Part shown: one piece after another, positions 15,089 through 17,135 of the stretch
Numbering within the stretch: the first letter of the stretch is position 1
How the letters are laid out: every line of letters begins with the position of its first letter
DNA from: Eledone cirrhosa
Lineage: Eukaryota
DNA: 64,000 nucleotides
Direction of reading: 5' to 3'
Assembly (NCBI GenBank): GCA_964016885.1
Contig: OZ024741.1
Coordinates: 185,876,001-185,940,000, forward strand
Notes under the pieces: generated by a model
Databases searched by the model: none
Told to the model about the DNA's origin: nothing
What the model saw: only the letters and a program-made list of their open reading frames with translations
Made by a program: the position numbers and the translations under genes

Positions 15089-15561
15089 TCCGAATTTATG
15101 TGGGAAAGACAGGTTCACGTGTTGTTGAAATGTGTTTTACTCCGTCAATACATCGATATGTTCTGCTCCTGGTTGTGTTGTTATTTCTCTGGGGAACTGG
15201 AATCATATGGGTTAGAACAAACAATTTCGGCGTCATAGGACACGCTCGCATCCCATTTGTCAGTTGTGAGAACATTCCTCAGTCAAAAGTATATAGACAT
15301 TTTTCTGAGGCGACAAACTCATGTAGTTGTTTTTGCCGGATGTTTAAGTACAGCTGACCTCCTCCATTGTGTTGGTAGTGACAGTGGTTTTAAGGGGTCA
15401 GCTGGCAGGTCAGCTTTAGTGTGCTGCGGCTATGTTCTGAAGAATTTGTGTGTAGGTTGGTATATGTATATATATATATATATATATATATATATATATA
15501 TATATATATGAAAGGCGTAAAATAAGAAAATTATAACAATTAACTTACTTACTAAAATTTC

Positions 15562-15643
15562 ACTCCAACTAATTAGTTTCTGAAAGGGAATAAACATAGT
15601 TTCCGAAGAAATGTACGGAGAAGCCTTTCATCATCAGGGAAGT
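15562..15643 (-). ncRNA. Type I hammerhead ribozyme (family B, best copy)
   Basis: Minus strand ACTTCC-CTGATGA-TGAAAGG..CCTTTCA-GAA-ACTAATTAGT-T-GGAGT; 7-bp stem II, palindromic stem III, GUU triplet. Confidence 0.8.
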
Positions 15644-16091
15644 CTATTCTCAGCTAAGTTTCCAGGCAATGCGCGGACACAGGGAACTTATACAAAAATA
15701 ATTCAGTGGATGGAAAAAAGCAAAGCGTGGACTAAGTTCCAAGCCATTGAAAAAATCACTGCCTACTGCCTCGGTAGCAAATTCAAAAGAATCAATCACG
15801 TGACATCGAGGTTAATCAGTGAGGAGTGGTTTGTTAAGAAGACAGCAGCCGAACCGTTACTATGAACTATAGTAGCAGTTTTTGCCAATTTTGGCTCAAC
15901 AAAATAATTTGGAGATAATTATAAAGAATTAGTATATCTACTAACATATATATACAGATGCATACCTATGCCAGCAAATATATAGGTTTTGTCTTAGTAA
16001 CTTTGTGGTTCAATGCATGGGGATGCAGAACAATAATATGAAAGACGTAAAATAAGAAAATTATAAAAATTAACTTACTTACTAAAATTTC

Positions 16092-16173
16092 ACTCCAACT
16101 AATTAGTTTCTGAAAGGTAATAAACATAGTTCCCGAAGAAACGTACGGAGAAGCCTTTCGTCATCAGGGAAGT
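16092..16173 (-). ncRNA. Type I hammerhead ribozyme (family B, copy 2)
   Basis: As above with a C.A mismatch at the stem II closing pair; exactly 530 nt from copy 1. Confidence 0.72.
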
Positions 16174-16769
16174 CTATTCTCAGCTAAGTTTCCAGGCAAT
16201 GCGTGGACACAGGGAACTTATACAAAAATAATTCAGTGGATGGAAAAAAGCAAAGCGTGGACTAAGTTCCAAGCCATTGAAAAAATCACTGCCTACTGCG
16301 TCGGTGGCAAATTCAAAAGAATCAATCACGTGACATCGAGGTTAATCAGTGAGGTTTCTTATTTTACGTCTTTAATATTATTGTTCTGCATCCCCATGCA
16401 TTGAACCACAAAGTTACTAAGACAAAACCTATATATTTGCTGGCATAGGTATGCATCTGTATATATATGTTAGTAGATATACTAATTCTTTATAAATATC
16501 TCCAAATTATTTTGTTGAGCCAAAATTGGCCAAAACTGCTACTATAGTTCATAGTAACGGTTCGGCTGCTGTCTTCTTAACAAACCACTCCTCACTGATT
16601 AACCTCGATGTCACGTGATTGATTCTTTTGAATTTGCCACCGACGCAGTAGGCAGTGATTTTTTCAATGGCTTGGAACTTAGTCCACGCTTTGCTTTTTT
16701 CCATCCACTGAATTATTTTTGTATAAGTTCCCTGTGTCCACGAATTGCCTGGAAACTTAGCTGAGATAG

Positions 16770-16851
16770 ACTTCCCTGATGACGAAAGGCTTCTCCGTAC
16801 GTTTCTTCGGAAACTATGTTTATTCCCTTTCAGAAACTAATTAGTTGGAGT
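16770..16851 (+). ncRNA. Type I hammerhead ribozyme (family B, inverted copy 3)
   Basis: ACTTCC-CTGATGA-CGAAAGG..CCTTTCA-GAAACTAATTAGTT-GGAGT. Confidence 0.72.
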
Positions 16852-17135
16852 GAAATTTTAGTAAGTTAATTTTTATAATTTTCTTATTTTACGTCTTTCA
16901 TATTATTGTTCTGCATCCCCATGCATTGAACCACAAAGTTACTAAGACAAAACCTATATATTTGCTGGCATAGGTATGCATCAGTATATATATATGTTAG
17001 TAGATATACTAATTCTTTATATATATATATATATATATATATATATATATATATATATATATATATATATATATATATATATATACATATATATATATAT
17101 ATATATATATATGTATGTATAAATATATATATATT

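Follow-up and report, generated by a model that had tools for sequence, protein, structure and literature searches.

A dispersed 530-nt hammerhead repeat of Eledone cirrhosa with a Penelope-type two-site insertion signature

Layout of the locus and its hammerhead motifs

The window analysed here is a 64,000-nt stretch of Eledone cirrhosa DNA (contig OZ024741.1, positions 185,876,001 to 185,940,000). At positions 15506–17021 it holds two arms of a tandem repeat joined head to head and flanked on both sides by (TA)n tracts, which mask target-site duplications (Table 1). The period is 530 nt, with 97.1% identity at lag 530 and at most 34% at other lags of 525–535, and the units at the locus are about 3% divergent from each other. 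Unit numbering starts from the predicted ribozyme cut; the minus arm reads from 16354 to 15506 and the plus arm from 16355 to 17021. An earlier note on this DNA had called two same-strand hammerheads that delimit exactly one repeat unit, and both lie where it placed them, 530 nt apart from cut to cut. The third hammerhead that it located in the inverted block was found as well, the palindromic stem III that it described (ACTAATTAGT) is present in all three motifs, and its view of the unit as non-coding agrees with a longest sense ATG ORF of 53 aa.

Table 1. Features of the insertion and its flanks (window positions)
Feature	Positions	Strand	Details
(TA)n target microsatellite, left	15461–15509	none	
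Arm 1	15506–16354	−	unit 273–530 + 1–530 + 1–61; end at the short (+61) start site
Single full 530-nt unit	15567–16096	−	predicted cut to predicted cut; 35% GC, non-coding
Type I hammerhead motif, copy 1	15562–15643	−	predicted cut after GUU 15569–15567; U replaces the usual C after A9
Type I hammerhead motif, copy 2	16092–16173	−	predicted cut after GUU 16099–16097
Head-to-head inversion junction	16354–16355	none	arm 5′ ends joined
Arm 2	16355–17021	+	unit 38–530 + 1–177; end at the long (+177) start site
Type I hammerhead motif, copy 3	16770–16851	+	predicted cut after GUU 16844–16846
Terminal segment of arm 2	16908–17021	+	
(TA)n target microsatellite, right	17018–17138	none	

The unit is without an RT/GIY-YIG ORF and in this differs from an autonomous Penelope-like element. 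It has the sequence features of a retrozyme, namely tandem units, at least two consecutive hammerheads, a GC content below 50%, many dispersed copies and co-existing Penelope-like elements. Judged by its sequence, the locus holds a single insertion of a non-LTR retrozyme, a non-coding 530-nt hammerhead repeat present in high copy number. RNA production by the locus itself is putative, given the divergence of about 3% between its units and the rare U in the core of the 15567 copy; a transcript that ran through the two arms would probably fold into a long hairpin. A palindromic GTCACGTGA word at 15796–15806 (unit about +290 to +300) lies outside the predicted helices and is kept in 11 of 12 aligned units; it resembles an E-box and could, we presume, be part of an internal promoter.

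The three hammerhead cores (CTGAYGA..GAAACTAATTAGTT) lie at 15565–15637 (−), 16095–16167 (−) and 16776–16848 (+), and none arose in 100 shuffles. No hammerhead match was returned by Rfam at gathering and E-value thresholds, and a hammerhead motif search of metagenome contigs gave no match. Taken in isolation, the 96-nt motifs are no more stable than shuffled sequence (z ~0), and the hammerhead fold lies 2.6–4.7 kcal/mol above the minimum-energy fold; the whole unit folds better than shuffles (z = −3.7). We regard the motif as established through covariation across copies, not through folding energy. Each of the six stem II pairs holds in 160–168 of 168 motifs from the fetched loci, with pair 2 formed as A-U (78), C-G (37), U-A (29) or G-C (24) and pair 5 as G-C (91) or U-A (69). 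When 29 motifs, selected to be diverse, were aligned and scored at ten named pairs, all 290 cells were standard pairs, against 17–61% in slid controls, and the covariation score was reached by none of 500 shuffles, although kinship inflates such scores; a single aligned pair has a two-sided change among these 29 motifs. For helices outside the ribozyme, two-sided changes occur in 17 of 105 predicted pairs (12 units). The core is invariant across the motifs examined and stem II covaries, and the aligned copies indicate that the ribozyme is under selection as an RNA.

Two core positions deserve description. The U that the 15567 copy carries at the bulged position after A9 is rare (3 of 168 motifs), and a further A before GAAA is kept by all subfamilies seen, with 52 matches to another letter at that position against 9,703 to A, counts that come from patterns that are not identical. 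Candidate hammerheads with the same stem III and without the extra A were set aside, being almost all mutated members of the 530-nt family. The palindromic stem III would allow a dimeric fold of the kind described for palindromic helix III (PMC4209133), which the element may use.

Family size and insertion signature

A search with the unit in the species' own 3.0-Gb assembly gave 2,924 first-look candidates, the best copies being 96–98% alike. An 18-mer from the unit has 3,620 exact matches genome-wide, and a relaxed hammerhead pattern has 9,703 (matches, not loci) with none in the reversed control. Subfamilies have unit lengths of 522–571 nt and lie 10–25% apart, each of them uniform within loci. 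The earlier note had named an assembly artefact as one possible source of the array, which is contradicted by thousands of dispersed, diverged copies that have a common layout.

We mapped 88 distinct loci, 27 of them best BLAST matches and 61 picked by the 18-mer in genome order, after removal of 12 duplicates. Arm 3′ ends form two clusters after the predicted cut, one at +61 and one at +177, where the unit and the target have a short AT/TA match, and both run into (TA)n; (TA)4 lies within 30 nt in 152 of 176 outer flanks. The 5′ ends are scattered over the unit. Both strands are present in 38 of 61 loci, so that the inverted block is the family's normal insertion product. Among the 55 head-to-head pairs in the 88 loci, +61 is joined with +177 in 45 and with a second +61 end in none; a +177/+177 pair was scored once (L064), though the unit continues into its flank, and nine pairs have a non-canonical end. 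Other subfamilies have the same two 3′ ends. Because the 3′ ends are fixed at two sites and the 5′ ends alone vary, the copies are not the free circular permutations that the earlier note had proposed to look for.

The hallmarks given for Penelope elements are an inverted 5′-truncated copy, a one-sided tail and a (TA)n bias (PMC8557442), and in the anole element PAc two internal RT start sites bound the tail, and both strands are cut and extended (PMC11167929). The 530-nt repeat has a partial tandem with an inverted 5′-truncated copy, a tail at one end and a microsatellite target. From this signature we consider Penelope-type mobilisation of the repeat very likely, and the earlier proposal that the hammerhead-delimited unit spread by reverse transcription is supported.

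Predicted ribozyme cutting and the nature of the template

The cut site was predicted before any 5′ ends were tallied. A genome-wide pattern of a TA run before the cut region gave 87 matches, from which five rows of a long array on contig C9 (internal variants) and two duplicates were removed. In a hand tally of the remaining 80 TA-joined 5′ ends, 14 lie at +1, six at +2, six at −1/−2 and two at +3; the other 52 are spread over −3 to −30, with the largest group (13) at a position that has a TA match. For upstream G/C positions a generously set mean is 6.5 ends each, against the 14 at +1 (P = 0.007, or 2e-5 when the −1/−2 rows are counted with +1). This pile-up at the predicted cut is indirect evidence of cleavage in vivo, and there is a strong likelihood, on these ends, that the ribozyme is active in vivo; a pause at stem I may also produce such a pile-up. 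Among the 88 fetched loci, 2–3 of 152 arm 5′ ends lie at the cut, and because these alone do so, most passes would read through an intact junction. Nine 5′ ends that seemed to fall on unit position 1 were mostly a query-end artefact, with 2–3 left after remapping.

Units of one insertion resemble each other more than they resemble units elsewhere. Divergence is 2.3% within an arm and 2.2% between arms (24 loci), compared with 8.3% between loci, and in 35 of 35 and 31 of 32 loci the within-locus value is lower than the median against other loci, two double-insertion loci having been dropped. In 418 of 467 cases a non-CpG allele present in at least six loci is shared by every copy at the locus. 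Discordance shared between loci at one site was found in 72 pairs against 60 ± 8 under a simple null, and seven locus pairs share two discordant sites against 2.8 ± 1.7, slightly above the null. At 212 junction crossings there were no untemplated letters, insertions or deletions; 206 have one of three lineage forms and six have single changes. A single-unit, probably circular, template is favoured because units within a locus share lineage alleles, and the far greater difference between subfamilies than between units within a locus implies that arrays were repeatedly rebuilt from one unit. Within-locus gene conversion may also contribute to the likeness of units.

The earlier idea of rolling on a circle stands in part. 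Arms exceed one unit in 37 of the 61 loci picked in genome order and the units within an insertion are alike, but some insertions derive, to judge by their ends, from linear cut RNA. Of 15 fetched loci that end at the cut, five (L218, L219, L222, L226 and L230) consist of a full unit plus a tail with one intact junction, and they point to a partly cut linear RNA or a nicked monomer rather than a closed circle; L231, also fetched, ends elsewhere and falls outside the 15. With moderate confidence we take a covalent circle to have been the main template.

The account that we favour, and hold to be reasonably probable, is that a 530-nt retrozyme was copied into a TA microsatellite by a borrowed Penelope-like RT/endonuclease, probably from a circular RNA monomer. 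A tandem copy would be transcribed, and its hammerheads would cut after GUU, possibly as stem III dimers, to give unit-length RNA. The monomer would then be closed into a circle, as the single-unit bottleneck and published retrozymes suggest. A Penelope-type protein would nick both (TA)n strands and prime two cDNAs at the observed ends, +61 and +177, each through a short AT/TA match to the target. Each cDNA would extend across the junction and reach at most about three units, and head-to-head joining of the 5′ ends would give the product that is observed; if one arm failed, a single arm would be left. Any insertion with two same-strand hammerheads could serve as a new source. Against this account stand the extra A before GAAA and a hammerhead that is not the minimum-energy fold, the unit's lack of likeness to the terminal repeats of the two Penelope-like families described below (A and B), and the five unit-plus-tail loci together with the C9 array as a possible linear source. 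In addition, PAc ribozyme mutants still insert, with uncut RNA as the main substrate (PMC11167929), and one of nine Xenopus retrozyme dimers was cut in vitro (bioRxiv 10.64898/2026.07.22.740005).

It is also conceivable, if unlikely, that the same element and a Penelope-type enzyme used a linear, mostly uncut multimer as template, derived from tandem copies or homogenised satellite arrays; the ribozyme would then trim 5′ ends alone, and circles, if made, would be a by-product. The unit-plus-tail copies, which begin exactly at the cut, fit such a template, as does the main in vitro substrate of the anole Penelope, which is uncut RNA (PMC11167929). Long linear sources can exist, given the array at G000:C9:18435001–18464770 (L212–L214), which has at least 56 units of 522 nt that are 96% alike, with a higher-order pattern; its left end lies beyond the fetched stretch. 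However, because stem III is decayed in many of its units and it ends at the normal +61 end, the array looks like one insertion that expanded later. Copying from a linear template could shorten arrays but not lengthen them, and it should transmit differences between unit positions, whereas the subfamilies, 10–25% apart, are uniform within loci and inherited discordance is near the null; each lineage would also need its own homogenised master.

Less probable again is a cut, unligated monomer whose ends are held by stems I and III, with the RT crossing the nick or jumping. Such a monomer would account for the single-unit bottleneck, for stops at the cut, which came on the first pass in 10 of 15 loci and on the second in five of 15, and for the short duplication from +1 at C2:265083849, as expected after a jump. 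The absence of untemplated insertions or deletions in all 212 junction crossings argues against it, as do the small share of passes that stop at the cut and the accumulation of published animal retrozymes as covalent circles (PMC7229834). We hold it very improbable that the repeat is an assembly artefact, or a DNA-level satellite or foldback element whose ribozyme is vestigial: one long satellite array is present on C9 and no short-read contig (contigs of one sample) spans 15506–17021, but the copies are dispersed over many contigs with fixed 3′ ends, variable 5′ ends and (TA)n targets, they carry compensatory changes, the units at the locus differ by about 3%, and public contigs from one sample, which may be that of the assembly itself, contain the family at high depth.

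Extending the favoured account of a circular monomer copied by a borrowed enzyme, we tentatively suggest, at somewhat short of an even chance, that the 530-nt RNA is a viroid-like, fully structured circle living as a parasite of Neptune-type Penelope enzymes in this octopod; two RTs would start on one circle, each from its own fixed site and for one of the target strands, and roll on beyond the junction. If this is true, rolling-circle target-primed reverse transcription would have left its direct record in the thousands of two-armed insertions, which would also record how Penelope inverted and tandem structures arise.

Relation to known elements and to neighbouring repeats

Non-LTR retrozymes are tandems with type I hammerheads that are expressed as circles in coral, mussel and axolotl, and Penelope helpers have been proposed for them (PMC7229834). 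Li, Clavereau & Pollet 2026 argue for a Penelope origin from co-occurrence and terminal-repeat homology (bioRxiv 10.64898/2026.07.22.740005). As portrayed in these two sources, the animal elements resemble the present family in their low-GC, non-coding tandem unit with one type I hammerhead each, in thousands of copies, in co-occurrence with Penelope-like elements and in a proposed circular intermediate. The unit of 522–571 nt is longer than the expressed invertebrate circles of 170–400 nt given in PMC7229834 and falls within the 51–972 bp of Li et al. Here, in contrast, the copies are mostly dispersed two-armed (TA)n insertions of 1–3 units with two fixed ends, a signature not described for retrozymes in the available text of PMC7229834 or bioRxiv 10.64898/2026.07.22.740005. 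A search of mostly open-access literature (listings and available main text) returned no cephalopod retrozyme and no strict two-end pairing in a retrozyme, and the word 'octopus' is absent from the main text of PMC7229834.

The family also resembles Neptune-type elements (Craig et al. 2021, PMC8557442) and the Poseidon element PAc (Frangieh et al. 2024, PMC11167929), as presented there, in a partial tandem with an inverted 5′-truncated copy, a tail at one end, a (TA)n target and two internal start sites downstream of the hammerhead. It differs from them in having no ORF and a tail of about 116 nt, compared with the 30–40 bp described; its start sites both match the TA target over a short stretch, but PAc initiates with no homology (PMC11167929). 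The motif itself is like the minimal or palindromic Penelope hammerheads reported by Cervera & de la Pena 2014 (PMC4209133) in the extra nucleotide between A9 and G10.1, the conserved G10.1-C11.1 (166 of 168 here), the long helix II and the palindromic helix III. It departs from that description in a further A between C11.1 and G12 and in a helix III that can form 3–4 pairs alone.

This kind of element is already known; what is new is an insertion record clear enough to link a retrozyme with two-site priming of the Penelope type, together with indirect support for the cut site and for a single-unit template. The enzyme that moves animal retrozymes and the circle as real template are open questions in PMC7229834 and bioRxiv 10.64898/2026.07.22.740005, as far as their available text goes, and the formation of Penelope tandem and inverted insertions is called unresolved in PMC8557442. 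The present family ties retrozymes to Penelope by insertion signature, not by co-occurrence, and offers a testable handle on how animal retrozymes move.

Penelope-like elements lie close by. An RT/endonuclease fragment at 18037–19928 is part of a broken, 5′-truncated Neptune-like copy at 18037–20480 (family A), which ends at its short end in (TA)n; a candidate hammerhead-like core was seen in its 3′ region, at 20237. Family A has 23,508 candidates genome-wide, an ORF of 1,210 aa, intact frames of 1,217 codons and copies that are 99.4–99.9% alike. Its ORF was not recognised in Pfam and NCBIfam searches, and a PDB search with the coding ORF gave weak RT matches alone; ESM Atlas neighbours at 0.95–0.97 carry RVT_1, GIY-YIG and HTH_animal, and the zinc-finger spacing agrees with the Neptune description given in PMC8557442. 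The public protein nearest to the neighbouring ORF is from Octopus vulgaris (64% identity). Among 46 family A loci, 17 have ends on both strands; in all 16 that are head to head a short end is paired with a long one, as is the rule in the 530-nt repeat, and the remaining one is tail to tail. These very young, intact candidate enzymes, together with a short RNA, two mapped start sites and a defined target, provide a handle for reconstitution.

Family B, reached via a distant public protein, is 65% identical to family A and also has intact frames. Full-length tandem copies of it with a period of about 4.28 kb and intact frames occur at G000:C6:65217028–65227438, C9:26428432–26435470 and C10:43895479–43902517, a coding counterpart of the tandem arms. 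Comparison of the 530-nt unit with family A (46 loci) and family B (25 loci), including terminal repeats, revealed no sequence likeness; apparent unit matches in family A loci were nearby copies of the 530-nt repeat itself or were TA-rich. Neither family is thus indicated by its sequence as the autonomous partner, and this local lack of Penelope terminal-repeat homology differs from the Xenopus data, in which 24 of 57 families match known elements, nearly all of them Penelope-like (as given in bioRxiv 10.64898/2026.07.22.740005).

At one place (L183/L187; L183:1357–1365) a +177 end is joined without TA to a 5′-truncated family B ORF in the same orientation. This could be a template switch and is treated as a lead only; no second non-TA continuation of a +177 end was found among 24 matches.

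A second non-coding tandem family occupies 17136–17875 in the same TA tract as the 530-nt insertion. It has a period of 625 nt, one fixed end and one variable end, and 3,299 candidates genome-wide; inspection by eye revealed no complete hammerhead core. Other long inverted repeats in the window lie at 8619–12656 and at 9467–11443 / 51490–53467.
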